Notes: generated by a model not told the origin, from the sequence alone. Positions 1,441 to 22,427 are shown, counted from the stretch's first letter. The stretch: DNA of 45,884 nucleotides from Gemmatimonadales bacterium UBA6960 (GCA_963580305.1 CAUZJY010000001.1:1-45884); one strand, 5' to 3'. Numbers and translations are program-made.

Positions 1441-1499
1441 ACGCAAATGGCGCGGCGCCGCAGGAACTTAGGCCTCTTTCGTTCGGGCCGAAGCCACCC

Positions 1500-3566: not shown

Positions 3567-3576
3567 GAGGACAGCA

Positions 3577-5844: not shown

Positions 5845-5969
5845 GCCCGAGGTCGGCGGCTCAGGGGCCGGCGGGCGCCGATGTGCGCTCGCCGGCCCTC
5901 GTCGTTCCCAGCTCCCGCGCGAGCTCCACGAACGCGGCCAGGCTCTCCGGGTTGGCCATGGCTCCCCGC

Positions 5970-6082
5970 GACGTCGGCCCAGAACCCCTCGGGATCGCGC
6001 ACCGACCACGCCCACGCGTCCGGGTACCCGGGTAGCGCGAGGCCGGGCGCTGCCGCTCCGCCCAGTCGAGGAAGGCGCCCAT
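5970..6082 (-). pseudogene. Short relic resembling the N-terminus of acetoacetyl-CoA synthetase
   Basis: MGAFLDWAERQR in one frame continues as GLALPGYPDAWAWSVRDPEGFWADV in another. This fits the F.DW...Y....WSV...FW..V pattern of AacS N-termini. Nothing homologous follows. Confidence 0.3.
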
Positions 6083-6140
6083 CCGCGTCCCCGCTGGGGC
6101 GTCCGGAGGGGGCTGCTAGAGGAGCCGGCCCATGCGGACG

Positions 6141-7244: not shown

Positions 7245-7351
7245 CGCTACCTCCTCTCGTCGAGCCTCGTTGGTCCATCCGTCTCACCCCGAGTGTCGAG
7301 GTGAGTGCCTGCGCCCCTTCACGTGCGGCGGTCCGTGTGCTATCGGTAGGT

Positions 7352-8746
7352 ATGGAGTCGCGTCTGCTGATCGTGTCCAACCGGCTACCGGTGACCGTCC
7401 GTGTCCAGGGGGGGCGCCCCGCGGTGCGCAAGAGCGTCGGTGGGCTCGCGACGGCGCTTCGACCGTGGCACGAGAGGTCGGGCGGACTCTGGATCGGCTG
7501 GCCAGGAGAAACTACGGGGCTCGACCGCTCCGGCGGGAGCGAGGTCCGTCGGCAGCTCGAGCAAGCGAGGCTCGTACCGCTCGAGCTGGACAAGGAGGAG
7601 GTCGAGGTTTTCTACGAGCACGTCTCGAACGCCGTGCTCTGGCCGATCTGCCACGACCGGATCGATCGCTTACCCCTCCGGATGGACGGCTGGGACGTCT
7701 ACGAGTCGGTCAACGCGCGCTTCGCGGATGCCGTCGCAGAGCACTGGCGCCGCGGCGACCTGATCTGGATTCACGACTATCACTTGTTGCGCGTCGCCGT
7801 GCTGCTGCGCGAGCGCCTCCCCAACGCACGCATCGGTTTCTTCCTGCACGTGCCCTTCCCGAATCCCGAGATCTTCTTCGCGCTCCCCACTCGCGCCACC
7901 CTGGTGGAGGGGATGATGGGGGCGGACCTGATCGGATTCCACACACAGCGCCACCATGGTCACTTCCGTGCCGCGCTCCGGCGCCTGTTCGGCGTGGTGA
8001 CGGACCGGAGGGGTGTGGTGGCTTGGAGGGGGCGACGGGTGCGGCTCGGGGTCTTCCCGATCGGGATCGACGCTGCCGATTTCGCGCGCCGCTCGGACTC
8101 TGCGCCGGTGCGAGCCAAGATGGCGGAGTACCGGGCGGTGGAGCAGCGACTCCTGGTCGGGGTGGACCGGCTGGATTACACGAAGGGGATCCCGCGCCGG
8201 TTGCTCGCGGTCGAGCGGCTGTTCGAGGCGCACCCGGAATGGCGCGAGCGCGTGCGCCTGATCCAGGTCGCCGTGCCGTCGCGCGACCAGGTGGGCGCGT
8301 ATCGCGAGATCCGGCGCGAGGTGGACAGGCTCGTGGGTCGCATCAACGGCCGGTTCGCGACGCCCAATTGGTCGCCCATCCACTACTTATACCGAAGCGT
8401 GGGAGCGGAGACGCTGCTCGGGCTCTACCGCACGGCCGACGTCATGCTCGTCACTCCTCTGCGCGACGGGATGAACCTGGTCGCCAAGGAGTTCCTGGCC
8501 GCGCGCACCGATACGGATGGCGTGCTGGTGCTGAGCGAGTTCGCCGGGGCCGCCGAGACGCTGACTGATGCGCTGATCGTCAACCCGTACGATATTGAGG
8601 GGACTGCGCAAGCGATCCACCACGCGCTCACGATGGAGCCGGCGGAGCGCAAGCGGAGGATGCGCGCGCTCCGCGCCAACGTACTGGAGCACGACGTCCA
8701 CCAGTGGGCCGCGCAGTTCCTGGACGGGCTGGCGGCCAACCGCTGA
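7352..8746 (+). CDS. otsA: Trehalose-6-phosphate synthase
   Basis: MESRLLIVSNRLPV.., GGLATAL, LWIGWPG, LWPICHD, IWIHDYHLL, FFLHVPFP, DLIGFHT, VDRLDYTKGI, TPLRDGMNLVAKEF, LSEFAGAA. The ORF-track ORF starts earlier at 7112, but homology begins at ATG 7352. Confidence 0.93.
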   Translation: MESRLLIVSNRLPVTVRVQGGRPAVRKSVGGLATALRPWHERSGGLWIGWPGETTGLDRSGGSEVRRQLEQARLVPLELDKEEVEVFYEHVSNAVLWPICHDRIDRLPLRMDGWDVYESVNARFADAVAEHWRRGDLIWIHDYHLLRVAVLLRERLPNARIGFFLHVPFPNPEIFFALPTRATLVEGMMGADLIGFHTQRHHGHFRAALRRLFGVVTDRRGVVAWRGRRVRLGVFPIGIDAADFARRSDSAPVRAKMAEYRAVEQRLLVGVDRLDYTKGIPRRLLAVERLFEAHPEWRERVRLIQVAVPSRDQVGAYREIRREVDRLVGRINGRFATPNWSPIHYLYRSVGAETLLGLYRTADVMLVTPLRDGMNLVAKEFLAARTDTDGVLVLSEFAGAAETLTDALIVNPYDIEGTAQAIHHALTMEPAERKRRMRALRANVLEHDVHQWAAQFLDGLAANR

Positions 8747-8756: not shown

Positions 8757-9214
8757 GTACGGGAATCGCTGGTCGAGTCGGTGCGGCCGTTGATCGAGCC
8801 GCTCGCTGTTGTCAAGCATGTCGCCCTCGACTGGCAGCATTCGGATCTCGACATTGTGGCGGCGGGTGACACCCTCAAGGTGGAACAGATCCTCGTGAAC
8901 CTGCTCACGAACGCGGTCAAGTACACCAGCCCAGCGGCCGGATCGAGGTAGGATGCGGGCGGAGCGACGAGGGGGTGAAGCTGACCGTCCGCGATACGGG
9001 AATCGGGATCCCGCCGGAGCGGCTTGCCGACATCTTCGAGCCCTTCGTCCAGGTCGGCTGCTCGCTGACCGCGGGCCAGGAAGGCACGGGGCTCGGCCTC
9101 GCGATCAGCCGCGACCTGGCCCGGGCGATGGTAGGGGATCTGACGGTGACGAGCGACGTGGGGGTCGGCTCGGAGTTCACCCTGCTCCTGCCCGCCCACG
9201 AGGCGCGGAGCTGA
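8757..9214 (+). pseudogene. Histidine-kinase remnant: HATPase_c domain only, frameshifted, no H-box or sensor
   Basis: N-box EQILVNLLTNAVKYT ends in a stop at 8949-8951. A shifted frame continues GRIEVGCGRSDEGVKLTVRDTGIGIPPERLADIFEPF..GTGLGLAISR. The frameshift lies near 8930-8940. Homology starts right after the otsA stop, so DHp and sensor parts are absent. Confidence 0.7.
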
Positions 9215-10013
9215 CCAGCCAGCCGACGTCCACCGCGAACGACCAGACCAGTAGGGCGAGCGCCAGCGCGGCCGCGCGCACGGCGACCTCAGCTGGGACG
9301 GTCGGGCCCAGCGCGACGAGCAGCGCGACCCCCTGGACCACGCACACTGCCTTCCGCCGCCCGCTCCGTGGGAGCTGCCCGCCCACCACGGGCCAGACCG
9401 AGGCCGCCAGGACGAAGGCGTACCGGATCCCGCCGATCGCGAGCACCCAGGGGCCGACCCTCCCGCTCTGCCATACGAGGACCGAGAGCGACAGCAGCAG
9501 GGCCGCGTCCAGCTCCATGTCGAAGCGCGTCCCGAAGGCGGACGCGCTGCCCGTGCGGCGCGCTACCCGGCCGTCTACCCCGTCCAGCAGCAGCGCCGCG
9601 GCCGAGAGCGTGATGATCCACCACGCAGCGCGCTCATCCAGCACATCGGGGTGGAGCACGAGCGCGGCCACCGGCACCACCAGCGTCGCCCGCAGCAGGG
9701 TGACCCGGTTCGCGGGGCCGATCCCCGGACCGCGCGAGAGCCCGGGGAAGTTGAGAAGGACGAGCCCGGCGAACAGCGCGTAGAGGACCACGGAGTCGAG
9801 CAGGTGGCTGGTCGGGAGCCCCAGAACCCAGCAGGTTGCAGTGGAGACGGCCGCCAGCGGCGCCACCCCGAGCGCGAGATCGCGCCCGGGGCGGGCCGCG
9901 GGCTTGGGTCTGACCGGTTGGCGCGGGGGAACGCGCACCGAGGTGGCGGTCGTTATGGGGCCTTCCGACTCCAGCTCAGGACATTCGTGTCGAGCACCGG
10001 CACCACCCGACAA
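9177..10013 (-). CDS. CDP-alcohol phosphatidyltransferase family protein
   Basis: Complete motif DGRVARRTGSASAFGTRFDMELD (DGxxARx8Gx3Dx3D) in a multi-TM protein. The TTG start at 10013 is uncertain and would overlap the divergent dehydrogenase gene by 27 nt. Confidence 0.8.
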   Translation of the reverse strand: MSGGAGARHECPELESEGPITTATSVRVPPRQPVRPKPAARPGRDLALGVAPLAAVSTATCWVLGLPTSHLLDSVVLYALFAGLVLLNFPGLSRGPGIGPANRVTLLRATLVVPVAALVLHPDVLDERAAWWIITLSAAALLLDGVDGRVARRTGSASAFGTRFDMELDAALLLSLSVLVWQSGRVGPWVLAIGGIRYAFVLAASVWPVVGGQLPRSGRRKAVCVVQGVALLVALGPTVPAEVAVRAAALALALLVWSFAVDVGWLVSSAPRGRAGAG

Positions 10014-10985
10014 TTCTGGATCCGCTCACCCGGTCGCGGCGAGATCGTGTCGGCCGGGCTCCCCCCGCTCGGCGCCGACGAGGTGCTCGTCCGTGCGCTC
10101 TACTCCGGAATCAGCCGGGGAACGGAGTCGCTCGTCTTCAGGGGGGAGGTTCCAGCGTCCCAGCATCACGCGATGCGCGCCCCCTTCCAGGAAGGGGACT
10201 TTCCGGGACCCCTCAAATATGGCTACAGCAGCGTCGGGGAGGTACTGGAGGCTCCCGCACGGCTCGGCGCGCTGGTGGGACGCACGGTCTTCTGCCTCTA
10301 CCCGCACCAGGATCTGTACGCCGTTCCGGCCCGTGCCGTGACCGTGCTCCCGGAGGGGGTTCCACCGGAGCGGGCCGTGCTGGCCGCGAACCTGGAGACC
10401 GCGGTCAATGCCGTCTGGGACGGCGGAGCCTCGGCTGGCGACCGGATCGTGGTGGTCGGGGCGGGGGTGGTGGGGCTGCTCGTGGCCTGGCTCTGCCGGC
10501 AGATCCCGGGGACGGTCGTCACGGTGGTCGATCACGACCCGTCCCGTGCGACGGTCGCCCGCGCGCTCGGGCTGGGGGAGGTGCTCGACCGCGTCCCGCC
10601 GGACGCCGGCGCGGATCTGGTCGTGCACGCGAGCGGGGCGCCCGAGGGGATGGCCGCCGCGCTCGGCGCCGCCGGAGTCGAAGCGACCTTGCTCGAGCTC
10701 TCGTGGTACGGTAGCCGAGCGGTCCCGCTCCCCCTGGGCGAGGACTTCCACTCCGGGCGCATCACGATCCGGAGCAGCCAGGTGGGGCGCATCCCGCCGC
10801 TCTGGGCCCCGCGCTGGACGCACGCACGCCGCATCGCGCTCGCGCTCGAGCTGCTGCGCGACGGGCGGCTGGACGCGCTGATCAGCGGGGAGAGTGAATT
10901 CGAGGCGCTTCCCGAGGTGATGGCCACCCTGGCGCATGACGGTCGTGGGGTGCTGTGCCACCGCATCCGCTACCGGCTGCCCTGA
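9987..10985 (+). CDS. MDR-superfamily (zinc-type alcohol dehydrogenase-like) NAD(P) oxidoreductase
   Basis: LVRALYSGISRGTE N-terminal block and Rossmann motif IVVVGAGVVGLLVAW. Start set at GTG 9987 and uncertain. The upstream part of ORF 9651-10985 looks non-coding. Confidence 0.75.
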   Translation: MSSTGTTRQFWIRSPGRGEIVSAGLPPLGADEVLVRALYSGISRGTESLVFRGEVPASQHHAMRAPFQEGDFPGPLKYGYSSVGEVLEAPARLGALVGRTVFCLYPHQDLYAVPARAVTVLPEGVPPERAVLAANLETAVNAVWDGGASAGDRIVVVGAGVVGLLVAWLCRQIPGTVVTVVDHDPSRATVARALGLGEVLDRVPPDAGADLVVHASGAPEGMAAALGAAGVEATLLELSWYGSRAVPLPLGEDFHSGRITIRSSQVGRIPPLWAPRWTHARRIALALELLRDGRLDALISGESEFEALPEVMATLAHDGRGVLCHRIRYRLP

Positions 10986-11015
10986 TCGAGTCCCGTACCG
11001 GAAGGGAGTGGCACT

Positions 11016-11414
11016 ATGTTCAGCCTAAACGTTCGCGACCACGTCATGATCGCCCACAGCTTCACCGGCGAGATCTTCGGGCCCGCACAGCGCCTGCACG
11101 GCGCAACGTACGTGGTGGACGCGGCGTTCCGGCGGACCGAGCTGGACGCAGACGGGCTGGTGATCGACATCGGACTCGCCGGCGCGCGGCTGCACGAGGT
11201 GCTCGCCGCACTGAACTACCGCAACCTGGACGAGGAGCCCGCCTTCGCCGGCCGCAACACTACCACCGAATTCCTGGCTCGGGTCATCCACCAGCGGCTG
11301 GTCGAGGCGATCCGGGCGGGCGGGCTGGGGGAGGGAGCGCGCGGCCTCGCTTCGGTCAGCGTAACCCTGCACGAATCGCATGTCGCCTGGGCGTCATACG
11401 AGGGACTGATATGA
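11016..11414 (+). CDS. 6-pyruvoyl-tetrahydropterin synthase/QueD-family protein, atypical active site
   Basis: 132 aa. [28 protein letters not shown] matches the PTPS/QueD fold pattern, but the usual C...HGH block reads AQRLHGA. SD GGAAGGGAG upstream. Confidence 0.7.
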
Positions 11415-11460
11415 CGGTGGGCAAGCGCATGCGTGGCCGGCCCGCTCCCGGCGTGCCACC

Positions 11461-12531
11461 TTGAACGCCGGCGAGCTGCACTTGGTCGTCCCCGGTCCAC
11501 TCGACCAGCGGACGGGTGGCTACCTGTACGATGCGCGCATGGCCGCCGGACTCGCGAAGCTCGGCTGGACGGTCGAGGTCCATTCGCTGGACGGAGCTTT
11601 TCCGGAGGGTGACGAGCGCGCGGAGGCGAGCCTGACCGCGACGCTCGCGGCGATTCCCGACCGTGCCCGCGTGCTGATCGACGGGCTCGGAATGGGCGCC
11701 CTTCCCGGACCCGTGCACGCTCATGCCGGGCGGCTGCGCCTGCTCGGGCTCGTCCATCACCAGCTCGCCGACGAGACCGGGCTCCCGGAGAAGGAGCGCA
11801 CGCGGCTGGGGGCGCTCGAGCGCGAGGCGCTGGCCGCGTGCGCGGGGGTGATCGTAACGAGCACGTTCACCTGCGAGCGGCTAATCGAGTACGGAGTGCC
11901 CCGCGCGCTGCTGCGCGCGGTGCCGCCGGGAACGCAGCCCGTCCGCCCGGCCGCCGGACCGGGGACGGGACAGCCACCGCTGCTGCTGTGCGTCGCGACG
12001 GTGATCCCGCGCAAGGGGCACGACGTGCTGGTGCGCGCCCTCGAGCGGATCCAGGCGATGCCCTGGAGCTGCAGCTGCGCGGGCAGCCTCGACAGCGCGC
12101 CCGAGTATGCGCGCGCTGTGCTCGCGCAGGTGCGGACCGCCGGGCTCGAGGGTCGCATCGACTTCCCGGGCGAGTGCGGCGAGCTGCTGCTCGAAGAGCT
12201 CTATCACGGCACCTCGCTCTTCGTGCTGCCGTCGCACTACGAGGGGTACGGGATGGCGTACGCCGAGGCGCTCGTGCGTGGGCTGCCGGTGGTGGGCACG
12301 ACCGGCGGCGCCGTTCCGCACACGGTCCCCGCCCGGGCGAGCATCCTGGTTCCGCCTGGGGACGACGCCGCGCTCGCGGAGGCACTCGGCCATCTGCTCG
12401 CCGGCTCGGCTGGTGCGGCGCGGCGCGCCCGGCTCGCCTTCGCGGCGCGCCAGCACGCGCTCGAGCTCCCCGGCTGGGATCGCGCGGTGGACGTGTTCGC
12501 GCGCGCCCTGCTCGAGCTCGCCCCGGACTGA
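11461..12531 (+). CDS. Glycosyltransferase family 4 (GT-B, group 1)
   Basis: C-terminal GT1 core LFVLPSHYEGYGMAYAEALVRGLPVVGTTGGAVPHTV and N-terminal Rossmann-like half. TTG start is uncertain. Confidence 0.8.
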   Translation: MNAGELHLVVPGPLDQRTGGYLYDARMAAGLAKLGWTVEVHSLDGAFPEGDERAEASLTATLAAIPDRARVLIDGLGMGALPGPVHAHAGRLRLLGLVHHQLADETGLPEKERTRLGALEREALAACAGVIVTSTFTCERLIEYGVPRALLRAVPPGTQPVRPAAGPGTGQPPLLLCVATVIPRKGHDVLVRALERIQAMPWSCSCAGSLDSAPEYARAVLAQVRTAGLEGRIDFPGECGELLLEELYHGTSLFVLPSHYEGYGMAYAEALVRGLPVVGTTGGAVPHTVPARASILVPPGDDAALAEALGHLLAGSAGAARRARLAFAARQHALELPGWDRAVDVFARALLELAPD

Positions 12532-12537
12532 GGCTGC

Positions 12538-13353
12538 ATGGTCGAGCGCTTCACCGCCGACTGGCTGGCGTTGCGCGAGGCGGTCGATCACCGCTCGCGT
12601 CCCGAGGGGTTGCTCGTCCCGCTGCGCGCCTGGTGGCGGGCGCGTGGGGCGTCGCACGTGGTCGATCTCGGAAGCGGCACGGGCTCGAACCTGCGCTACC
12701 TCGCGCCACGGCTGGATCCGGGGCAGCGCTGGCGGCTGGTGGATCACGACCGCGAGCTGCTGCGCCGGGCGGGTGCCGGGCAGGTGGCGGGAGCCGAGGC
12801 GGTCGAGCTCGTCGCGGGCGACCTCGTGCGCGAGGGGATCCTGGCCGCGCGCGGCGCCGAGCTACTGACCGCGTCGGCGTTGCTCGATCTGGTTTCGGGG
12901 AAGTGGCTGGAGGAGCTGGTCGGCGCATGCGCGTCCGCGCGCGCGGCGGCTCTGCTCGCGCTCAGCTGGGACGGTGCCATCGAGTGGGGCGGGGCGTCCG
13001 ACCCGGACGATGCGCTCGTGGCCGAGGCGGTGCGCGCGCACCAGCGGCTCGACAAGGGACTCGGCCCCGCGCTCGGAGCCACGGCGGCGGCGGCCGCCGA
13101 GCGCGCCTTCGCGGCTGCCGGGTACCACACCGAGCTCGCCCCGAGCCCGTGGGTACTGGGCCTGGAGGGTCCCGGCGAGCGCGCCCTCGGGGTCGAGTTG
13201 ATCGACGGCTGGGCCCGCGCGGCCGCCGAGCAGCGCCCCGAGCACGCCACCCGGCTGCGGGCGTGGGGAGAGCGGCGGATGGCCGCGGTGAGCGGCGGAC
13301 CCTGCGCGCTCATCGTCGGCCACCTCGACCTGCTCGCACTCCCACCCGCATGA
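12538..13353 (+). CDS. Class I SAM-dependent methyltransferase
   Basis: Motif I VVDLGSGTGSNLRYL followed by the acidic loop LVDHD. Starts 6 nt after the GT4 stop. Confidence 0.75.
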   Translation: MVERFTADWLALREAVDHRSRPEGLLVPLRAWWRARGASHVVDLGSGTGSNLRYLAPRLDPGQRWRLVDHDRELLRRAGAGQVAGAEAVELVAGDLVREGILAARGAELLTASALLDLVSGKWLEELVGACASARAAALLALSWDGAIEWGGASDPDDALVAEAVRAHQRLDKGLGPALGATAAAAAERAFAAAGYHTELAPSPWVLGLEGPGERALGVELIDGWARAAAEQRPEHATRLRAWGERRMAAVSGGPCALIVGHLDLLALPPA

Positions 13354-14414
13354 GCCAAGGGGCGGTGCCGCACGGCGCGCGGCACCCCGGGTGGGCGCGC
13401 ATGCTCCCGCGCTTCGCGATCAGCGCCGGGCTGCTCGGCGGGCTCGCCTGGCTGCTCGACGCGGACGCGCTGGTCCGCCGCCTCATCGACCTCGATCCCT
13501 TCTGGGTGGTGGTGGGGCTCGCGATCTCGCTTCCGCAGATGGCGCTGCTCGCGCTGCGCTGGCGGCTCACCGCGGGCCGACTCGGCCTCGACCTCCCCTT
13601 CGGCACCGCGCTGCGCGAGTACTACCTCGCCACGTTCCTGAACCAGCTCCTTCCCGGTGGGGTGATGGGGGACGTGTCGCGCGCGTGGCGGCACGGCCGC
13701 GCGGGTCCCGGTGCACCGCCCCACGGGAGCGCGATCGCGTCGCCCGTTCCGGCTTCGGGGCTTGGGCTCGGCCCGGCCGCGCGCGCGGTCGTCCTCGAGC
13801 GGGCGTCCGGGCAGCTGGTGATGGCGGCGGCCGCGGTGGTCGCCCTCGGGAGCCTGCCGGTGGCCGGAGCGGTGCGCGCGCGCGTGCTGGTGATCGTGCT
13901 GGGCGCGGCAGCGGCCGTGGTGGTCGTGGCGTTCACGCTCGAGCGGGCCCGCGTCGCGTCCCGCCTCGCGAGCGCGGTGTGGCGCGACGTGCACGCGGCG
14001 TTGCTCGCGCGCGACGTCGTGGGCGCGCAGCTCGCCACATCCGTGCTCGTGCTGGGGACCTACGTGGCCACGTACCTTGCGGCCGCGCGCGCGGTCGGGC
14101 TCACCACTCCGTTCGCGGTGCTCCTGCCGCTCGTGCCTCCGGTGCTGCTCAGCATGCTGATCCCGGTGACGGTCGCGGGGTGGGGGATCCGCGAGGCGGC
14201 GGCGGCCGGGCTGTGGAGCCTGGTGGGGCTCACCGCCGAGGACGGGGTCGCGGCCTCCGCCGCGTACGGCCTGCTCGTCCTCGCCACCACCCTTCCCGGG
14301 GCGGCCGTGTTGGTCAGCGCAGCTCGAGGTCGAAGAGCAGATCCTCGCCCAGATGGAAGTGCCGGCAGCGCGGGCGGAGCGCCTGGTCCAGGCTCGCCAC
14401 CGGCGGAAGGGTGA
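13350..14414 (+). CDS. UPF0104 / lysyl-PG-synthase-TM-like flippase-like membrane protein
   Basis: ATG 13350 overlaps the methyltransferase stop (ATGA). Polytopic membrane protein with REYYLATFLNQLLPGGVMGDVSRAW and IPVTVAGWGIREAAA blocks typical of this family. The 3' end overlaps the convergent RibD-like gene by about 100 nt, so the true C-terminus is uncertain. Confidence 0.65.
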   Translation: MSQGAVPHGARHPGWARMLPRFAISAGLLGGLAWLLDADALVRRLIDLDPFWVVVGLAISLPQMALLALRWRLTAGRLGLDLPFGTALREYYLATFLNQLLPGGVMGDVSRAWRHGRAGPGAPPHGSAIASPVPASGLGLGPAARAVVLERASGQLVMAAAAVVALGSLPVAGAVRARVLVIVLGAAAAVVVVAFTLERARVASRLASAVWRDVHAALLARDVVGAQLATSVLVLGTYVATYLAAARAVGLTTPFAVLLPLVPPVLLSMLIPVTVAGWGIREAAAAGLWSLVGLTAEDGVAASAAYGLLVLATTLPGAAVLVSAARGRRADPRPDGSAGSAGGAPGPGSPPAEG

Positions 14415-15111
14415 GCGCCGGACGGCCGGAGCCGATCAGCAGCGGCGCGACGCACACGTGGAGCCGGTCGAGCGCTCCCGCCGCGACGAAGCGCGAGACG
14501 GTGACGCCACCTCCCTCGACCAGGATCCGCCGGAGCCCGTGCCCGCCGAGCGCCTCGCGCAGCGCCGCCGGCTCGAAGCCCTCCGGGCCAACCGGGAGCG
14601 CGAGCACGTCGGGGTCGGCATCGCTCGCCGCGCGACGCACCACCAGCGTGCGACCGCCGTCGCTGAACACGCCTAGGTCGCGCGCGAGCCTCCCGTCCGG
14701 GTCCAGGATCACGCGCACCGGATTCTCCCCCTCGACCTCGCGCACGGTGAGCCGCGGATCGTCGAGCGCGACCGTAGCGGCGCCCACGACTACGGCATCG
14801 ACCAGCGCGCGCAGCCGGTGCAGGTGGACGATGTTGGCCGGACCGGTGACGTAGCGCGAGCGGCCCCCCTCGGTCGCGATGCGCCCATCCAGGCTCTGGC
14901 CGAGCTGGCCGATCGCGAGCTCGGGGGGGAGCGCCACTGGCAGGAACAGATCGAGGAGCTGCCGCGCTTCCGGGGTGGGCTCGGGATGCGCGCGCCACGT
15001 GCCGGACGACTCGGTCTCGATCCACGCCGGGCCGGCCGAGACGCGTCCGGCGCCCCGTCCGCGCGCGGCGCGTACGAGCGTCCACGCGGTCTGCTCGTCC
15101 AACGCGGCCAA
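14314..15111 (-). CDS. RibD C-terminal-domain (pyrimidine reductase/DHFR-like) protein
   Basis: GQSLDGRIATEGGRSRYVTGPANIVHLHRLRALVDAVVVGAATVALDDPRLTV..NPVRVILD..ILVEGGGVT. Start uncertain (TTG 15111, TTG 15102 or CTG 15120), abutting the creatininase stop. Confidence 0.75.
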   Translation of the reverse strand: MAALDEQTAWTLVRAARGRGAGRVSAGPAWIETESSGTWRAHPEPTPEARQLLDLFLPVALPPELAIGQLGQSLDGRIATEGGRSRYVTGPANIVHLHRLRALVDAVVVGAATVALDDPRLTVREVEGENPVRVILDPDGRLARDLGVFSDGGRTLVVRRAASDADPDVLALPVGPEGFEPAALREALGGHGLRRILVEGGGVTVSRFVAAGALDRLHVCVAPLLIGSGRPALTLPPVASLDQALRPRCRHFHLGEDLLFDLELR

Positions 15112-15116
15112 GGCGT

Positions 15117-15926
15117 TCAGGCCAGCCGGTCGAGCGGGAAGGCGCGCGCGTCCGCGATTACCTCGGCAAGCACCCGGCCGTAGTGCGTGACCAGTCGCGC
15201 GCCGAGCGCGGCGTCGGCCGCGCGCGCATCGCCCACCGCACCAGATGGATTCAGGTCCCCCGCGAGCCAGGCGAACGAGGCGGCCCCCTCCGGCCCCAGC
15301 CACGTGAGCGTCCCCTCGAGCTCGGCGCCGAGCGAGCGCCCGTCCGGGCGCTCCTCGTGCACCAGATCCGGGCGCAGGTGCAGCATCATCGCGGTCTCGA
15401 GCAGTCCGCCGTGCAGCCCGTGGCGCCACTCCTTCTCGGCGATGGCGACGTCCTCGGGCCGCGGGAAGCGGAACCAGCTCGCCTTCACGACCAGCATGCC
15501 GTGCGCGTTGCGCAGCCGGAGCCCGGCCTCGTCCAGCGTCTGGCGGTTGCCGCCGTGGCTGTTGGAGAGCACCAGGCGGCGCACGCCGGCGGCCGCCAGC
15601 CCGTCTCCGATCTCTTCGATGAGGGCCCCGAGCAGCTCGGGCTCAAGCGACAGTGTCCCGGCGAAGCGCGCGTGCTCGCGGCTGGATCCGATCGGTTGCG
15701 GAGGGAGCGCCCATGCCGGGAAGTCGGCAGGGAGATGGCGGAACGCCTCGCCCAACAACCCGAGCCCGATGTCCAGGTCCGTGGAGAGCGGCAGGTGCGG
15801 CCCGTGCTGCTCGATCGCGGCGAGTGGTAGGACCACGACCGGATCGTGCTCGGCCAGGCGGTCGGCCTCTACGGTGGTGAGCCCGTGCCACCAGCGGATC
15901 GTGCCGAGATCGCCAGCCTCAGCCAT
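15117..15926 (-). CDS. Creatininase-family amidohydrolase
   Basis: Metal-site blocks LPLAAIEQHGPHLPLSTD, LSNSHGGN, HGGLLETAMML. ATG 15926 overlaps the FkbM stop by 8 nt. Confidence 0.85.
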   Translation of the reverse strand: MAEAGDLGTIRWWHGLTTVEADRLAEHDPVVVLPLAAIEQHGPHLPLSTDLDIGLGLLGEAFRHLPADFPAWALPPQPIGSSREHARFAGTLSLEPELLGALIEEIGDGLAAAGVRRLVLSNSHGGNRQTLDEAGLRLRNAHGMLVVKASWFRFPRPEDVAIAEKEWRHGLHGGLLETAMMLHLRPDLVHEERPDGRSLGAELEGTLTWLGPEGAASFAWLAGDLNPSGAVGDARAADAALGARLVTHYGRVLAEVIADARAFPLDRLA

Positions 15927-16707
15927 CGAGCCTGCCGTCGGATGGGTAGGAAGCGGGAGCGAGCAGCCGCGCGTAAACGTCCCCGGACGGCGCGTCGCCC
16001 GTGCCGCGCTCCAGCCAGCGGACCACTTCGGTCGGGCTGAGCCAGCGCTCGGAGACGAAGCGCCGCTCCTCGCCTCGGACCGCGTTGAGCTCGTAGCGGC
16101 CGAGCGCTTCGAGCCGCCGCACGCACGCGATCGGCACGTCGAGCGCGCCCGCCACGAACTCGAAGGAGAGGCCCGGGAGCGGGCGCGAGAGCCCGGCGAG
16201 CACCTCCGCCTCGAACCCCTCCACGTCGATCTTGCAGAAGCGGGGCATTCCGTAGGTGCCGATCAGCGCGTCGAGGGTCGTAACCGACACCTCGACCGTC
16301 TCCTCCCAGCGCACCTGGCGGAAGCTCGGGTTGGCCTCGGGGAGCGCGGTCGTCCAGCGCTCTGCGAGCGAGGAGACGGTGGGGGTGCGGTGGCTCACCG
16401 CGAGCCGTGCCGTGCCCGGCGCGCTCCCGACCGCTTCCGGGCGGATCGTCACGCCAGGGCGCCCGCCCACGAGGCGCACCAGCCAGCGGCGGATCTCCGG
16501 CTGCGGCTCGAGCGCGACCACCTGCGCGCCGAGCGCGCTGAACGCCGCCGCGCGGTCACCCACATGCGCGCCGACGTCGAAGACGAGGTCACCGGGGCCG
16601 ACCCACGGCCGGTAGAGCCGGCGCAGCCCGCGCTGCCGCCCCGGACGCCAATAGACGGCGAGTGACCGCAGGAGCCCTGCCCACCGTTCAACGCGGGGGG
16701 GTGCCAA
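15919..16707 (-). CDS. FkbM-family methyltransferase
   Basis: VFDVGAHVGD motif I and FCKIDVEGFEAEVLAG block characteristic of FkbM-type methyltransferases. TTG start overlaps the cytochrome b561 3' end by 20 nt. Confidence 0.8.
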   Translation of the reverse strand: MAPPRVERWAGLLRSLAVYWRPGRQRGLRRLYRPWVGPGDLVFDVGAHVGDRAAAFSALGAQVVALEPQPEIRRWLVRLVGGRPGVTIRPEAVGSAPGTARLAVSHRTPTVSSLAERWTTALPEANPSFRQVRWEETVEVSVTTLDALIGTYGMPRFCKIDVEGFEAEVLAGLSRPLPGLSFEFVAGALDVPIACVRRLEALGRYELNAVRGEERRFVSERWLSPTEVVRWLERGTGDAPSGDVYARLLAPASYPSDGRLDG

Positions 16708-17335
16708 CGCTCGTCACAGGCGCGGACGGCCGTTCGGACGACGGCTGCGCCGGGGACAGCGCGCCCCGCCCGATGGGCGGCCACATCCGGCCCAGGATCC
16801 CGTCCTTGACGACCCAATGATGGCGGAGCACCTCGGCGACGTGCACGCCGACTACGCCCACCAGGATGAAGACCGTGAAGCGGTGCACGAAGGAGGAGAT
16901 CACCGCGAGCCGCTCCATCCGCGGAATGAGCGGGGGCACGCCCAACGCGTCCAGGAGCTCGATCGGGAAGCCCAACCCGATCACGTGCACGTAGCCGCTC
17001 ACGGCCGCGACCACCATCAGCACGTACATGAAGGCGTACGTCCATCCCGCGATCCTGCGCTCGAGCGGGGGGACGCTCTCGGGCATGGGCGGCGCTCGAT
17101 GGGTAAGCCGCCACAGCACGCGCGCCAGGATCACCACGATCAGGACCGCACCCAGCCCTTTGTGGAAGATGTAGAGCGTGTCGATCGTGCTTTGCTCCAC
17201 CCCGGGGAGGGCCGCGAAGTCGCCGATCATGGCGGGCACGATCATAGCGATTCCCGCCGGGATCTGCGCCAGGAAGAGCAGTACGACCAGCCAGTGGAAG
17301 AAGCGGAAGCCCGCTCCGTAGCGTTGGACGGTCAC
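16688..17335 (-). CDS. Cytochrome b561 family (CybB-like) membrane di-haem protein
   Basis: RFFHWLVVLL, IFHKGLG and HRFTVFILVGVVGVHVAEVLRHH give four TM helices with conserved His. GTG start overlaps the upstream stop (GTGA). Confidence 0.8.
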   Translation of the reverse strand: MTVQRYGAGFRFFHWLVVLLFLAQIPAGIAMIVPAMIGDFAALPGVEQSTIDTLYIFHKGLGAVLIVVILARVLWRLTHRAPPMPESVPPLERRIAGWTYAFMYVLMVVAAVSGYVHVIGLGFPIELLDALGVPPLIPRMERLAVISSFVHRFTVFILVGVVGVHVAEVLRHHWVVKDGILGRMWPPIGRGALSPAQPSSERPSAPVTSVGTPPR

Positions 17336-19011
17336 GGCGCCTCCTGCGTTGCGCGCTGAAGGTGCGGCCGCGCGTGCGGCACCGCGGCGCCCCCGCTGTA
17401 CGCGTGCACGAACCAGCCACGGAACTCGTCCATGCGGTGCGGCTCCTGGTTCGAATCGGGACGGCTCCCCTCGCGGAAGCCCCAGTCGAGAAACGGCTTC
17501 AGCAGCGCCCGGTCGCGCGCGAAGACGTGGACCGGGACCGCGGCGCTCGTGGCGCCCGTGACCCAGGGGGCCGCCTCGTGGTCACCCATCACGATCAGCA
17601 GGGTGCCTTCGTCCAAGTAGCGCTCTACGTACCCGGTCATCGCCCGAAGCGAGTAGTCGATCGAGCGCGCGTACTGAGCGCGCAGTTGCTCGATGTCGAT
17701 CCACAGCTCCTCGGGCGGGTGCCCCTCCTGCCGAAAGGACTCGAAGCGGGAGCCGTCGCCGATCTCGTCCCAGTCCACCATGGGCAGGATCGGCGTCCAG
17801 GGAGCGTGGCTGCTCACCATCGCGGTCCCCACGAACTGCGGGCGGCCGTCGCCCCCGTGGCGCACGGTCCGGTGCAGGTAGGACCAGGTGAACTGATCGG
17901 GCATCGTGACCCAGTAGAGGGGCGGACCGCCGTAGGTGATGTTCGCGGCCGTGTGCACCTGGTCGTAGCCGAGCCGCACACCGTCCGGCCAGCTCATGGT
18001 GATCGCGGGCATGAGCGCGGCGGTGCGGTAGCCGGCGTGGCGGAAGTCGTCGACCATGGTCTCGCGGTCGCTCGCGAGCATCAGCTCGTAGCGGAGCTGA
18101 TTGGAAAGCCAGAGGCCGCTGATCACGGTCCCGTGTGCGTACCACGACTGCCCGCCCGTGGTCGGAGAGATCAGCGTCCCGGTCGCCAGGTAGAGGCCCG
18201 TCCGGCCGGCGCGTGCGGCGAGCGTGTCGAGACGCGGGCCGATCACCGCCGCGAAATCGGGGTCGTTCAGGACCGCCATCCCGTACGACTCGATGAACGT
18301 GAGGAGGACGTCACGCCCCTCGAGCCCGGAAAGGAGGCCGTGGACTCCGGCGTAGCTACTGGGGCTGGTGAGCTCGTCGGCGAAGCGCCTCTTCTCCTCC
18401 CGTGTCTCGCGCAGCAGCGCGGCCTGCGTACGGACGAGCCGCCCAACCGGGGCCGCCAGCCGGCTCTGGATGAGCGGGGTCGTGCCGGTCATGCCCAGGG
18501 CAGAGAAGGCCACCAGCGCCAGCCCGGCCAGCCGCGGCGCCATCCCCTTGCGAGGCCACGCGAGGGGCGCCCCCCGTGGCCACCCCGGGGGCACGTCGGG
18601 GGGAGCCAGCAGCCGGGCCAGCCCGAAGCTTGCTAGACCAAGGACCAGGAGGAGGAGGAGGAGGGTCGCCAGAGTCGCGACGAGCCCCATGTTTCCGACC
18701 GCCAGGTTGTAGATGGCGCTCACCAGATAGAGGTCGATGAAGAGATTGAGGGGACGGGCCAGGCTCACCTGGAAGACCAGATCCACGACGCCGACCAGCG
18801 TGACCAGCACGACCGCGATCGTTGCGCCCCACGCCAGCCTGACGCCCCAGGGCCGCCTTGGCAGCAGCGCCAGCGTGCCCACCAGGAACGCGGCTTCGAC
18901 CGCCAGCCATCCGCCGGAGATCGAGCCATCCGGCAGGACCGCCGCGGAGAGCCAGATGGGGGTCATCAGCAGGGCATTGACAACCACCCACGCAACTGTC
19001 AGCCTGAGCAT
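17332..19011 (-). CDS. Membrane-anchored alkaline-phosphatase-superfamily (sulfatase/LtaS/phospho-headgroup transferase-like) protein
   Basis: About 5 N-terminal TM helices, then an extracytoplasmic domain with VLLTFIESYG, SPTTGGQSWYAH, MVSSHAPW, LLIVMGDHE blocks. ATG 19011 preferred over the track start 19155, which would remove the divergent intergenic region. Confidence 0.65.
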   Translation of the reverse strand: MLRLTVAWVVVNALLMTPIWLSAAVLPDGSISGGWLAVEAAFLVGTLALLPRRPWGVRLAWGATIAVVLVTLVGVVDLVFQVSLARPLNLFIDLYLVSAIYNLAVGNMGLVATLATLLLLLLVLGLASFGLARLLAPPDVPPGWPRGAPLAWPRKGMAPRLAGLALVAFSALGMTGTTPLIQSRLAAPVGRLVRTQAALLRETREEKRRFADELTSPSSYAGVHGLLSGLEGRDVLLTFIESYGMAVLNDPDFAAVIGPRLDTLAARAGRTGLYLATGTLISPTTGGQSWYAHGTVISGLWLSNQLRYELMLASDRETMVDDFRHAGYRTAALMPAITMSWPDGVRLGYDQVHTAANITYGGPPLYWVTMPDQFTWSYLHRTVRHGGDGRPQFVGTAMVSSHAPWTPILPMVDWDEIGDGSRFESFRQEGHPPEELWIDIEQLRAQYARSIDYSLRAMTGYVERYLDEGTLLIVMGDHEAAPWVTGATSAAVPVHVFARDRALLKPFLDWGFREGSRPDSNQEPHRMDEFRGWFVHAYSGGAAVPHARPHLQRATQEAP

Positions 19012-19154
19012 CTCAGGGCCACCGATTCGCCTAGAATCTTCCCTCGCAAACCACCCGCGAGACCGCTCCAGGACCACTGCGCGTGCGAGCGCACGGAACA
19101 CCGGGCTCGGGCCCTCCGGACGTCTCTCCAGCGCGAACGATACCACCTGACCCA

Positions 19155-20264
19155 ATGGTGCACAAAGCGGAACGCGGACTGTTCGAGCTCCGGCAAGGGC
19201 GGGCGCTCTACGTCACCGATCCCGGCAGCTCGGCGCTGGTCGCGGCCGTGGAGGGGCTCACGGTCGATCGCCTCGAGCAGCTGCGCGAGCTCGGTATGGA
19301 CTTGCGGGTCGTGGTCACCCACCATCGCGGCCATGCGATGGGGCTCCCCAACGGTGGCCCCCCCCGCCACCTGAGCATTGCCCTGGGTCCGGCCGCCACG
19401 CCGGCGAGCATCCAGCGGTTGGCGACTGCACTGCGACCCACCGGCCACGTGGAGGCCCGGCCCGCCACCAGCGCCGAGGCGGCCGGTCTCGCGCTGGCAC
19501 GGTTCGGTCAGCTGCTCCCGACGGTCGTGAGCATGGCGCCCGATCCGATGCGGGTTGCGCGGCTGCTCGAGTGGATGAGCGACGCCACCGTATTGGACGT
19601 GAGCGCGACCGAGGTGGAGGCGCTGGTCACGACGCACGCAATCGAGGTCACGCACGTGGCCGAGGCCACTGTCCCCCTCCGGGATGCCGAGAGCGCACGC
19701 TTCATCTTCTTCCGTGAAGGTAACGGGTTCGTGCAGCACGTCGCGATCACGATCGGCGAGCGTGCCGAATGGCCAGATCCGTTGCCGGTGCGCGTCCACT
19801 CCGCGTGCCTCACCGGGGACATCTTCGGGAGCCTGCGCTGCGACTGCGGCGAGCAGCTCCACGGCTGTCTCTCGTACTTCGCGGAGCGCGGTGGCGGCGT
19901 ACTGGTCTACCTCGCGCAGGAGGGGCGCGGGATCGGACTCGGGAACAAGCTGCGCGCTTACGCGCTGCAGCAGGAGGGGCTCGACACGGTCGACGCGGAC
20001 GGGACGCTCGGGTTCGGCGCCGACGAGCGCCGCTACGACGCCGCGGTGGCGATCCTACGGCACCTCGGGGTCGAGCGCGTGCAGCTGCTCACCAACAATC
20101 CGGACAAGCTGCACGCGGTCCAGGAGGCGGGGATGACCGTGGTCGACCGCAAGCCGCTCCACGGCCGTCTCAACCCCCACAACGCCCGCTACGTCCACGC
20201 CAAGGTGCACCGGTCGGGGCATTGGTTGATGGATATGATCAACCGAGGCATCGCCGGCGACTAG
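19155..20264 (+). CDS. ribA: GTP cyclohydrolase II with degenerate RibB-like N-terminal domain
   Basis: C-terminal half VRVHSACLTGDIFGSLRCDCGEQL, YLAQEGRGIGLGNKLRAYALQ, LGFGADERRY, LLTNNPDK (Zn cysteines and the Tyr in RAY present). The N-terminal 190 aa align loosely to DHBP synthase but lack the acidic RENEGD-type motif. Confidence 0.88.
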   Translation: MVHKAERGLFELRQGRALYVTDPGSSALVAAVEGLTVDRLEQLRELGMDLRVVVTHHRGHAMGLPNGGPPRHLSIALGPAATPASIQRLATALRPTGHVEARPATSAEAAGLALARFGQLLPTVVSMAPDPMRVARLLEWMSDATVLDVSATEVEALVTTHAIEVTHVAEATVPLRDAESARFIFFREGNGFVQHVAITIGERAEWPDPLPVRVHSACLTGDIFGSLRCDCGEQLHGCLSYFAERGGGVLVYLAQEGRGIGLGNKLRAYALQQEGLDTVDADGTLGFGADERRYDAAVAILRHLGVERVQLLTNNPDKLHAVQEAGMTVVDRKPLHGRLNPHNARYVHAKVHRSGHWLMDMINRGIAGD

Positions 20265-20361: not shown

Positions 20362-20831
20362 GTGAGCCTCGGCCGCTACTACGACTGGCTCGGCCGCTTC
20401 CAGCGCATCGCGCGCTGGGTCAGCCGGAGCGGCGATCACATCCTCACCGTGCACCGGAAGCTCCGCTCGGAGCGCCCGGACGTTTCTCCCCATCACGTCG
20501 TGCACGAGCGGCTGCTCGATGCGCTCGGGCCGTTACACGATCCGCACGTGATCGACGCCGGATGCGGGCTCGGCGGCACGAGCTTCTACCTGCACGGCCG
20601 GATCGGCGGCCGCTACGACGGGATCACGCTGAGCCCCTCGCAGCACGAGCGCCCAAGATCCAGATCACGCGGGACGGGGCGATCTAGTTCTCCCCGCGAG
20701 GAAGCCGCGACTATCCGGCTCACAGCGTGCTGTATCCGGACATGGACATGATCACCTCGGTCGAGTCGCTTGGGGCGCACTATCTCAACGGCCCGCCCGG
20801 GTATCCGTTCGCACCCCGCACGGCGAACTAG
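20362..20831 (+). pseudogene. Decayed class I SAM-methyltransferase
   Basis: Good N-terminus up to motif I (VIDAGCGLGGTSFYL..YDGITLSPSQHER). Homology then breaks near 20650. A possible later block (DMDMITSVESLGAHY) is in another frame ending at TAG 20829-20831. Confidence 0.55.
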
Positions 20832-21173: not shown

Positions 21174-22427
21174 CTAGTAGTACCGCTCCGGCATGTCCAG
21201 CATGATCCGCCGCCGGAGCAGCTCCAGCACCTGCGGCGTGCGCTTGCCCTCCTCGACCGCTTCCATCACCTCGCGGTCGAGGGTGACCTCCTCCGGCAGG
21301 TAACGCCGACACGCGCCGTACTCCTCCTCGTAGTCCTCCGAGGGGAATGCAAGGCGCATGCGCAGGCCCGAGCCCACCCGCTCCGTCGCGTAGAGCGGAT
21401 TCAGCCGCAGATCTCCCCGGAGCGGCTCGCGCGCACCCAGCGGGTGGGGCCGAAGCAGGCCCACTGTCCCGGCGGGTCGCGTCGCGACGATCGTGAGCGC
21501 GGGATCGGCGGCGAGCGCCTCCGCGTCCGAGCGGCGCGACAGGTCCAGCGGCCCGCCGGCTACGACGTCGTCCAGCAGCCGTTGCTCGGGGAAGAGGCGG
21601 GGCTCGAGCGACTCGAACAGATCGCGGTAGCCCTCGGGTGGAAGGGGCTCCCCGTGCGAGTGGCTCCACACGAGCTGGTTGTGGGCGTGTGTGATCACGA
21701 CTGCGGCGGCCTCGCTCGGCCCCCGGTCCACCAGCCGCTCCAGCTCGCCCACGAGCTGCCGCTTGGTCCAGATGTACATGAAGGCGTCCGCGCAGAGCGC
21801 GAAACGGAAGGCGCCTCTTGCCAAGGGGAGCGGTGCGTTCCCGTCGCAGCAGACCGGCTCGCAGCCGGGTGCTACGTAACGCGCCGCCAGCCAGAGCTTC
21901 GCGAAATAGAGATCCGCGATCACGGGCGCGTCGGAGAGCTCGAGGAGCACGCGCGTAAGATGCCCCGAGCCGCCGCACGCGTCGATCGCCCGCCCGCCGT
22001 TGGCCAGCACGGTTCCGCCCACCGCGCGCACGACCGCGCTCGCGGCCACGTACGAGGGGTCGGAGAAGCGGTACAGGAAGCAGTCGCCCTCGAGCTCCTC
22101 CGCGAGCGTCTCGGCGAGCTCGCGATAGGTGGTGTTGTGCCCGGCCGCGGCCTCGGTGAAGCGGGCCGCCCTCTCCTCGTCCTCGGAGACGAGCGCCCGG
22201 AACGCGCGGTCGGACTCGCCGGCTTCGATCGCCTCGCGCGCAAGGGCGGCGTTCGGGTGCAGGTGCATCACCGGAACCCCGCCCACCACGGGAAAGAGAC
22301 AGCAGTGGCAGGCGAGCACCCCCTCCAGGATCGCCTCGGCCTCGCGCACGTGGTGCATCGACTCGACCAGCTCGAGGCGGCTGCCGCAGTAGGGGCAGCG
22401 GAGGATCTCCAGCGTCTCAGGCCTCAC
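21174..22427 (-). CDS. Trm112-like zinc-ribbon fused to a class I SAM-methyltransferase
   Basis: LEILRCPYCGSRLE..LACHCCLFPVVGGVPVM (Trm112p-like), then IDACGGSGHLTRVL motif I. GTG 22427 overlaps the PIG-L stop (GTGA). Confidence 0.75.
   Translation of the reverse strand: MRPETLEILRCPYCGSRLELVESMHHVREAEAILEGVLACHCCLFPVVGGVPVMHLHPNAALAREAIEAGESDRAFRALVSEDEERAARFTEAAAGHNTTYRELAETLAEELEGDCFLYRFSDPSYVAASAVVRAVGGTVLANGGRAIDACGGSGHLTRVLLELSDAPVIADLYFAKLWLAARYVAPGCEPVCCDGNAPLPLARGAFRFALCADAFMYIWTKRQLVGELERLVDRGPSEAAAVVITHAHNQLVWSHSHGEPLPPEGYRDLFESLEPRLFPEQRLLDDVVAGGPLDLSRRSDAEALAADPALTIVATRPAGTVGLLRPHPLGAREPLRGDLRLNPLYATERVGSGLRMRLAFPSEDYEEEYGACRRYLPEEVTLDREVMEAVEEGKRTPQVLELLRRRIMLDMPERYY

Follow-up and report, generated by a model that had tools for sequence, protein, structure and literature searches.

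What is made by a gene cluster in which enzymes of GTP-derived pyrimidine and pteridine chemistry are encoded side by side with enzymes of phospholipid head-group metabolism? This question is raised by a locus of Gemmatimonadales bacterium UBA6960, which was analysed within a 45,884-nt stretch of its DNA (the window; about 70% G+C). Twelve intact genes were found between positions 9177 and 20264 by gene calling and family searches, among them those for a GTP cyclohydrolase II (GCH II), a RibD_C-only reductase, a protein of the 6-pyruvoyltetrahydropterin synthase family (PTPS), a CDP-alcohol phosphatidyltransferase (CDP-OH) and a membrane protein of the alkaline phosphatase (AP) superfamily. 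We propose that a polyol phosphate derived from GTP becomes, through the cluster, the modified head group of a phospholipid, and that this is exported and passed on; we give this scheme as a whole a probability of about one half. The original prediction made from the sequence had suggested a pathway for a modified, membrane-anchored GTP-derived metabolite; such a pathway is supported by the coupling and conservation of the genes, while its product and its anchoring are what we infer.

The cluster is the Gemmatimonadota member of the orphan SCO6650/SCO6655-type neighbourhood of PTPS-IV, GCH II and RibD_C genes (PDB 3D7J; PMC5445326; PMC5041015). With the Streptomyces coelicolor neighbourhood it shares a GCH II and a PTPS-like protein that is 78% identical to SCO6650 (PDB 3D7J, E=5e-58) and carries the FGPAQ sequence found in 72 of 77 orthologues, which places it in the PTPS-IV subfamily (COG0720). 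FGPAQ is the signature of PTPS-IV, and the neighbourhood of this subfamily (561 sequences) contains PF00925 and PF01872 (PMC5445326). The statement that no characterised pathway could be matched stands insofar as our literature search found no paper assigning a product or function to the cluster, but the locus does match this known orphan neighbourhood. A related Streptomyces locus has CDP-OH, zinc alcohol dehydrogenase-like, PTPS-IV, GT4, methyltransferase, flippase-like, creatininase and ribA genes in the same order; it differs in a GCH II that has Met in place of the catalytic Tyr and no N-terminal domain, and in the absence of RibD_C, FkbM, cytochrome b561 and AP-like genes. No mention of the membrane genes was found in the accessible literature on the PTPS-IV neighbourhood. 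As far as we found, the link to lipid head groups, the LtaS-like transferase, the 22-kb extent of the unit and its glycan-synthesis neighbours are new.

Conservation of the gene set was followed in two samples. For the first, anchored on the creatininase-family gene, one genome per species was scanned and the best 80 of 296 relatives were taken with 10-kb flanks; they comprise about 27 loci from Gemmatimonadota (Longimicrobiales and Gemmatimonadales), about 48 from Vicinamibacterales and other Acidobacteriota, and three from Gammaproteobacteria, including an Aquisalimonas isolate. Partner genes were sought by tblastn with the window proteins, and many of the misses are due to short contigs. 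The RibD_C gene was found in 74 of the 80 loci, followed by those for FkbM (70), GCH II (68), the AP-like protein (66), the S-adenosylmethionine (SAM)-dependent methyltransferase (63), PTPS and the GT4 glycosyltransferase (62 each), the MDR-like dehydrogenase (61) and CDP-OH (57). Cytochrome b561 was present in 30 loci and occurs in the Agrobacterium and Thiodictyon clusters as well. This co-localisation is far beyond chance. The order of the genes varies by lineage and their membership is constant: GCH II occupies at least three positions, for example beside the AP-like gene or between the creatininase and RibD_C genes, and the orientation of the AP-like gene flips among lineages.

The second sample, anchored on PTPS-IV, yielded a similar gene set in most of its members from Beta-, Alpha- and Gammaproteobacteria, Chloroflexota and Actinomycetota, so that the suspected co-localisation holds in at least three phyla in the first sample and in most loci of the second. 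Chromosomal or metagenome-assembled genome (MAG) loci were found in Methyloversatilis thermotolerans (chromosome) and a Chloroflexota MAG, and plasmid or chromid loci in Streptomyces fungicidicus, Agrobacterium tumefaciens (pAt), Methylosinus trichosporium OB3b, Thiodictyon, a Rhodobacteraceae strain and Microbacterium, where the copy lies on a 59-kb plasmid. The innermost core consists of MDR, PTPS-IV, methyltransferase and RibD_C; it is usually joined by GT4, CDP-OH and the flippase-like gene, and frequently by GCH II, creatininase, AP-like, cytochrome b and FkbM genes. MDR lies directly upstream of PTPS-IV in nine of the 11 PTPS-anchored organisms, and GT4 follows PTPS-IV in eight, as it does in 62 of the 80 creatininase-anchored loci. 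Identity across phyla is 67-82% for PTPS-IV, 60-76% for MDR and 57-82% for the creatininase-family protein, in the last case over hundreds of sequence clusters. When PTPS-IV sequences themselves are clustered at 90% identity, at least 8000 clusters result.

In the alignment of the GCH II with E. coli RibA (PDB 2BZ0) the zinc ligands Cys54, Cys65 and Cys67 and the residue Tyr105 (E. coli numbering) are retained within the motifs HSaCLTGD, RCDCG and KLRAY, and the protein matches the 376-aa-type model NF006456 over its full length (324 bits). The catalytic Tyr is kept in 72 of 73 loci, the sole exception being the Streptomyces fungicidicus plasmid locus (L087), where it is Met. Spoonamore and Bandarian reportedly found that SCO6655, in which Met replaces the catalytic Tyr, releases a formamidopyrimidine. 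The window protein also carries an N-terminal domain of about 165 aa (19155-19650) that is degenerate and RibB-like: residues ~93-165 align to the 3,4-dihydroxy-2-butanone 4-phosphate (DHBP) synthase part of M. tuberculosis RibBA, a GH.E remnant persists, the acidic substrate/metal motif is lost as read from the alignment, and no DHBP_synthase or other Pfam match was found in this domain.

The reductase and the creatininase-family protein belong to families with archaeal members. The RibD_C domain was matched at residues 176-346 of a long open reading frame (ORF) in which Pfam found no dCMP_cyt_deam domain, and hence not a bifunctional RibD; its best PDB matches are archaeal 2,5-diamino-6-ribosylamino-pyrimidinone 5'-phosphate reductases (6P8C, 2AZN). 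In the creatininase-family protein the fold and the EQHGxHLP...D...H...E metal motifs are present, the best NCBIfam match is MftE, below its cut-off, and a role as deformylase is predicted from the family. This family includes the formamidases of 2-amino-5-formylamino-6-ribosylamino-4(3H)-pyrimidinone 5'-phosphate (AFRPP), bacterial BrbF and archaeal ArfB, and S. meliloti and Brucella require BrbF to synthesise riboflavin (PMC9478397).

A housekeeping riboflavin operon was considered for these genes and rejected, as the reductase has no deaminase domain and the window no ribH/ribE, active DHBP synthase or FMN riboswitch. An Rfam search of the window returned neither an FMN riboswitch nor any other family, and in the ORFs scanned across it Pfam detected no domain for ribH/ribE, folate, queuosine or RFAP synthase, which agrees with the absences noted originally. 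The ribA- and ribD-like genes of the cluster are probably not housekeeping copies, because accessory replicons carry them in Agrobacterium (pAt), Streptomyces and Microbacterium, the deaminase domain is missing, the DHBP-synthase motif is lost and there is no FMN riboswitch. According to a review, the third RibA paralogue of S. coelicolor has a function unrelated to flavin synthesis (PMC13151069).

The PTPS-IV protein departs from canonical PTPS and QueD. The original prediction had invoked rearrangement of pterin side chains by a PTPS-fold enzyme; in the alignment with C. elegans PTPS (2G64), however, the catalytic Cys is replaced by Ala and HGH by HGA. HGA is conserved among the PTPS-IV orthologues, leaving two of the three zinc histidines, and the T-fold Glu (HES) is kept. 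Without the catalytic Cys and the third zinc His, the side-chain rearrangement is therefore not simply transferable to this protein. SCO6650 is said by Spoonamore and Bandarian to lack PTPS activity. Six chains of 370-855 aa were found to contain three tandem PTPS-IV domains each (P0361, P0370, P0373, P0382, P0414 and P0442), and judging from this arrangement they would form the T-fold trimer from one polypeptide. The MDR protein encoded beside PTPS-IV matches sorbitol, threonine and xylitol dehydrogenases in the PDB (E ~1e-6), and its homologues are named 'zinc-binding alcohol dehydrogenase' by PGAP.

Among the membrane enzymes, CDP-OH (253 aa as called on the Logan contig, within an ORF open to 10013) has the intact CDP-alcohol phosphatidyltransferase motif DGx2ARx8Gx3Dx3D (DGRVARRTGSASAFGTRFDMELD) and hydrophobic segments indicating multiple transmembrane (TM) passes, and it reaches no substrate-specific NCBIfam equivalog model. 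The flippase-like protein matches PF03706 over the full profile length, and flipping is predicted from this MprF-type domain. No match to the AP-like protein was found in the PDB by sequence or profile search, and many of its homologues carry PF00884. In an AlphaFold2 model built with 27 homologues (pLDDT 77), N-terminal TM helices (2-213) are followed by an alpha/beta domain, and the top Foldseek matches are LtaP, LtaS, GacH, full-length MCR-1 and PbgA (E down to 6e-9, probability 1.00). E241, T284, H402, D477 and H478 are invariant in the 27 homologues, with a spacing that appears to resemble that of the metal-binding residues and the nucleophilic Thr in LtaS and MCR-1. By its model the protein is a head-group transferase of LtaS/EptA type, with a catalytic set that is probably intact. 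Together, CDP-OH, the flippase-like protein and the AP-like protein suggest a system for making a special phospholipid, flipping it and handing on its head group.

These lipid genes are bound closely to the others. In the window the methyltransferase gene shares 4 bp with the flippase-like gene, with similar coupling in the Chloroflexota and Microbacterium loci; CDP-OH overlaps RibD by 4 bp in Thiodictyon; in Agrobacterium CDP-OH and ribA lie 20 bp apart on the same strand, consistent with one operon; and CDP-OH is divergent from MDR in 57 of the 80 loci. The membrane link is supported because lipid genes are translationally coupled to GTP/pterin genes in several such arrangements, and we consider it likely that all of them, membrane genes included, belong to one pathway. 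Of the decorating enzymes, the methyltransferase has homologues named class I SAM-dependent methyltransferase by PGAP and no PDB match by sequence. For GT4, an assignment as conflict-system protein was dismissed, as the PF20706 match amounts to 24 bits over 35 residues.

From these families a route can be proposed, of which the first two steps are inferred from family chemistry. GCH II would open GTP to 2,5-diamino-6-ribosylamino-4(3H)-pyrimidinone 5'-phosphate, the creatininase-family enzyme would strip leftover formyl from a formamidopyrimidine intermediate, and the deaminase-less archaeal-type RibD_C would convert the ribosyl group to ribityl; that the pathway starts from the GCH II product and that this is reduced by RibD_C seems likely to us. 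All later steps are hypothetical, as are the acceptor that we name and the part given to cytochrome b561. MDR and PTPS-IV may remodel the ribityl-diaminopyrimidine, as a guess by oxidation of the 2'-hydroxyl to the amino-ketone that GCH I also produces, which would then cyclise to a neopterin-like dihydropterin phosphate. GT4 and the methyltransferases would then decorate the compound, and CDP-OH would join the polyol (phosphate) to diacylglycerol phosphate, giving an unusual phospholipid; we see an even chance that attachment takes this form of a phospholipid head group. The MprF-type flippase-like protein, together with an MsbA-like ABC exporter where present, would move the lipid to the outer leaflet. 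There the LtaS/EptA/OpgB-type enzyme could hand the phospho-head group to an extracytoplasmic acceptor, for which a periplasmic glucan or exopolysaccharide appears likeliest, and cytochrome b561 may exchange electrons with a redox-active head group.

The choice of acceptor rests on neighbouring genes and on precedent. Among the 80 loci, 15-16 that represent three phyla have mdoG-mdoH (MdoG Pfam E=9e-174) divergent from the AP-like gene (for example L019, L031, L032, L037, L044, L055, L061 and L075), and mdoH adjoins the cluster on the Methylosinus trichosporium OB3b plasmid (L088). Osmoregulated periplasmic glucans receive phosphoglycerol and phosphoethanolamine from phospholipids through the AP-superfamily enzymes OpgB and OpgE. 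A glycan is proposed as the final acceptor because glucan genes adjoin the cluster and because of this OpgB/OpgE precedent.

Further genes extend the unit to the right. The original prediction had ended the cluster at 20264; the conserved unit in fact reaches ~31160, which gives ~22 kb, about twice the first span, as a tight minus-strand operon (31160 to 21174) adjoins the core cluster (Table 1). The quartet from unk397 to the Trm112-like ribbon protein (unk417) accompanies the cluster in about 30 of the 80 loci, and the GT2 synthase and ABC exporter in 19-20: the exporter is 54% identical to a conserved neighbour family found in 20 loci, and the synthase 57% identical to a GT2-GH family adjoining the cluster in 19. 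In two loci (L034 and L058) the operon continues straight into methyltransferase, EEP phosphodiesterase, FkbM, creatininase and RibD_C genes. The unk397 protein has 372 aa, a mean column identity of 83% over 11 orthologues from different phyla (e.g., L021:1349-2467) and many invariant Trp and Cys residues. It gave no significant Pfam, NCBIfam or PDB profile match; its hhalign comparison with the two GT4 proteins was insignificant, with faint, likewise insignificant hints of a GT-B-like C-terminus, and its single-sequence AlphaFold model was uninformative (pLDDT 32). Between core and operon, the short ORF at 20362-20751 is probably a decayed gene: the CMAS-like family to which it aligns occurs at full length (295 aa) in about 40 related loci, and the rest of the gene was not detectable in the 422 bp 3' of the remnant.

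Table 1. Features annotated in the core cluster and its extension (window positions; loci are counted among the 80 creatininase-anchored loci)
Feature	Position	Strand	Family evidence and occurrence
CDP-alcohol phosphatidyltransferase (CDP-OH)	9177-9938	-	PF01066, 65 bits
MDR-like dehydrogenase	9987-10985	+	ADH_zinc_N, 23.8 bits (below cut-off, 31.8); NCBIfam BchC, 51.7 bits
PTPS-IV (T-fold) protein	11016-11414	+	Pfam PTPS, 81.7 bits
GT4 glycosyltransferase (GT4a)	11461-12531	+	Glyco_trans_1_4, 87 bits
Class I SAM-methyltransferase-like protein (MT)	12538-13353	+	Methyltransf_25, weak, 21 bits (below cut-off, 27)
LPG_synthase_TM/UPF0104 flippase-like membrane protein	13350-14414	+	PF03706, 114 bits
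RibD_C-only pyrimidine reductase	14314-15111	-	RibD_C, 121 bits
Creatininase-family amidohydrolase (candidate formamidopyrimidine deformylase)	15117-15926	-	Pfam, 211 bits
FkbM-family methyltransferase	15919-16707	-	Methyltransf_21, 49 bits; TIGR01444, 88.7 bits
Cytochrome b561 membrane protein	16688-17335	-	PF01292 (Ni_hydr_CYTB), 86 bits
AP-superfamily membrane protein, LtaS/EptA/OpgB type	17332-19011	-	Sulfatase, 16 bits; fold match
GTP cyclohydrolase II (GCH II)	19155-20264	+	GTP_cyclohydro2, 185 bits
Probable remnant of CMAS-like methyltransferase, 129 aa	20362-20751	+	Aligns only to residues 14-113
Trm112-like zinc ribbon + methyltransferase-like protein (unk417)	21174-22427	-	Weak Trm112, Methyltransf_25; 32 loci
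PIG-L de-N-acetylase (MshB-like)	22424-23236	-	Pfam PIG-L; TIGR03445, 82.8 bits (below cut-off); 30 loci
GT4b	23233-24258	-	Pfam; weak BshA/MshA similarity; 28 loci, 59-80% identity
unk397, no detectable family	24255-25373	-	31 loci
MsbA-like ABC exporter (start codon not fixed)	25396-27252	-	ABC_membrane + ABC_tran
GT2 synthase, N-terminal glycoside-hydrolase-like domain, C-terminal NHL repeats	27258-31160	-	Pfam

Genes were called from codon-position G+C and checked against independent calls on an identical Logan contig, with which they agree. All core genes are intact, and their families are those given originally, although eleven had been counted and there are twelve once the divergent GCH II is included. 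Nine of the Pfam assignments lie comfortably above the cut-off; those of MDR, the SAM-methyltransferase and the AP-like protein fall below it and rest on the other evidence given above. The predicted layout of transcription units is borne out by the spacing. CDP-OH forms a single minus-strand gene, the plus-strand unit from MDR to LPG_synthase_TM has intergenic gaps of -4 to 46 bp, the minus-strand unit from the AP-like gene to RibD_C has gaps of -20 to 5 bp, and GCH II is divergent from the AP-like gene at a distance of 143 bp. These units are inferred from spacing only, because consensus scans for promoters and terminators found none in the window. The flippase-like and RibD_C ORFs are convergent and overlap tail-to-tail by 101 bp (14314-14414); their tblastn ranges overlap by 55-91 bp in L002, L007, L016 and L054. 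The cytochrome b561 gene overlaps both its neighbours. In Methyloversatilis a YceI-family gene adjoins CDP-OH (L082:7521-8105); in E. coli a gene for cytochrome b561 is the partner of yceI, and by analogy the Methyloversatilis YceI may relate to the cytochrome b561 of the cluster.

Other genes were observed in the surroundings. An EEP-family (Exo_endo_phos) protein accompanies the cluster at L067:6878-7867, in about 20-26 other loci and at L085:8854-9771, and not in the window; its carriers are Vicinamibacterales, some Gemmatimonadota and the Chloroflexota MAG, and the L067 ORF is hydrophobic near its N-terminus. The left flank of the core (840-8746) encodes an unusually long, 908-aa malate-synthase-domain protein, a 762-aa isocitrate lyase, an MscS channel and OtsA. 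A functional link to the otsA, mscS and glyoxylate-shunt neighbours was rejected, as the adjacency exists on the contig of the window and in none of the 80 related loci.

Parts of the cluster resemble several known systems. With the archaeal ArfA/ArfB/ArfC enzymes and BrbF it shares a GTP ring opener, a creatininase-family hydrolase and a deaminase-less archaeal-type reductase. Unlike the archaeal steps, it uses a Tyr-type GCH II and not GCH III, and unlike the archaeal routes to riboflavin and F420 it lacks lumazine synthase, riboflavin synthase and Fo synthase and is coupled to lipid and glycosyl enzymes. The pairing of a CDP-alcohol transferase with a multi-TM AP-superfamily enzyme that has an extracytoplasmic domain and a putative Glu/Thr/His/Asp-His set is that of PgsA and phosphatidylglycerol with LtaS or OpgB, and of phosphatidylethanolamine with EptA, MCR-1 or OpgE, and opgGH-type glucan genes are adjacent in some loci, as in such head-group donor systems. 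In contrast to these systems the proposed precursor is derived from GTP and is not glycerol phosphate or ethanolamine, and sequence similarity to LtaS/EptA is below detection.

Likeness to the pterin routes through GCH I and PTPS and to cyanopterin, tepidopterin and solfapterin lies in the GTP-derived 2-amino-4-oxopyrimidine, the T-fold protein, the GT4-type enzyme and a nearby PIG-L; the cluster GT4 may resemble pteridine glycosyltransferases. In contrast to GCH I/PTPS routes, the cluster lacks GCH I, and its T-fold protein lacks the catalytic Cys and the third zinc ligand. The combination of GT4 and PIG-L, a CDP-alcohol transferase related to phosphatidylinositol (PI) and phosphatidylinositol phosphate (PIP) synthases, a flip and an AP-superfamily phospho-transfer likewise recalls PIG-A/PIG-L of glycosylphosphatidylinositol (GPI) synthesis and MshA/MshB of mycothiol synthesis. 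Unlike these glucosamine (GlcN)-inositol systems, the window has no inositol-phosphate synthase, and PIP synthase scores far below its cut-off. The MshB and MshA models gave 82.8 bits against a cut-off of 224 and 31-44 bits against 462, respectively, and no inositol-1-phosphate synthase domain was found in the window. An inositol pathway was also rejected, since the weak IolM/IolN matches score well below those to BchC and MftE.

Several observations weigh against a pathway from GTP to an exported lipid head group, and some of them favour other explanations. Rhodobacteraceae SC52 has a minimal core without CDP-OH, GT4 and the AP-like gene, and the Methylosinus cluster is without CDP-OH, so that the product could be soluble and attachment to a lipid is not general. 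Under this explanation the core would make a soluble glycosylated, methylated pteridine or pyrimidine (a cofactor, pigment or compatible solute) and the membrane genes would serve a separate envelope function. PTPS-IV occurs alone on Streptomyces plasmids, which also favours it, and GT4-type enzymes make pteridine glycosides in cyanobacteria and Chlorobi. Solfapterin carries GlcN, which would match GT4 and PIG-L. We nevertheless regard it as doubtful: CDP-OH and the flippase-like gene are coupled to or co-operonic with GTP/pterin genes in several arrangements and phyla, CDP-OH and AP-like genes persist in 57 and 66 of the 80 loci, and neighbours that persist through rearrangement are rarely unrelated. 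Other points bear on single steps of the lipid scheme. The Streptomyces cluster has no RibD_C within 14 kb and the Agrobacterium cluster no creatininase, while elsewhere the creatininase accompanies a Tyr-type GCH II that is expected to need no deformylase. The steps after the reductase are without biochemical precedent, and reduction of the ribosylamine followed by re-oxidation is an indirect route to a pterin. Neither the phospho-donor nor the acceptor of the AP-like enzyme is readable from sequence, and the adjacency behind the glucan link is seen in a minority of loci.

PTPS-IV has also been said to act in F420 synthesis, with unpublished work cited for it (PMC5041015). This counts against the lipid scheme and for an explanation in which the GTP module supplies precursors of riboflavin or F420 in archaeal style, with PTPS-IV as the missing deaminase or another step and the remaining genes unrelated. 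The requirement for BrbF in riboflavin synthesis and the closeness of RibD_C to the archaeal riboflavin reductases point the same way. However, the window lacks ribH, ribE, cofG/H and an FMN riboswitch, the RibB-like domain has degenerated, the cluster occurs patchily and on plasmids in Agrobacterium, Streptomyces and Microbacterium, and the Streptomyces paralogue is described as unrelated to flavin synthesis (PMC13151069). Agrobacterium is to our knowledge not a genus known to make F420. The tight coupling to GT4, methyltransferase, CDP-OH and flippase-like genes would be left unexplained, and precursor supply appears improbable. Plasmid location in several genera and the abundance of methyltransferases could instead suggest a diffusible GTP-derived secondary metabolite, such as a toxin, antibiotic or signal similar to toxoflavin or fervenulin, with membrane proteins for export or self-protection; toxoflavin-type pathways start with GCH II and RibD-like genes. 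This we hold to be very improbable. The very high conservation across phyla is more in keeping with a physiological role that is itself conserved than with a natural product that diversifies, the cluster proteins contained no further domain and no toxoflavin-type marker (no ToxC/ToxD-specific comparison was made), and CDP-OH, LtaS-like and flippase-like proteins are lipid enzymes and not typical exporters.

In its fullest form, the proposal of an exported, GTP-derived phospholipid head group would describe a new class of phospholipids in many phyla, with a glycosylated, methylated pterin or ribityl-diaminopyrimidine head group made by a GCH I-independent route that employs GCH II, a reductase of archaeal type, a polyol dehydrogenase and a T-fold protein without Zn. 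Flipped outward, the lipid would act as redox partner of cytochrome b561 and as donor of a new phospho-substituent that an LtaS/OpgB-like enzyme adds to periplasmic glucan or exopolysaccharide; so complete a version is tentative and rather unlikely to hold in all its parts. If the proposal is right, phospholipids would gain a new class of head group and the envelope a new substituent, and GTP would have a second way to a pterin-like ring, one that bypasses GCH I. The cluster of PTPS-IV and the GCH II paralogue has been an orphan since the Streptomyces enzyme studies of about 2006-2008, and it is among the more widespread uncharacterised bacterial pathways. Its compact plasmid copies in tractable organisms (Agrobacterium pAt, with ten genes, Streptomyces, Methylosinus OB3b and Microbacterium) open the question to experiment.

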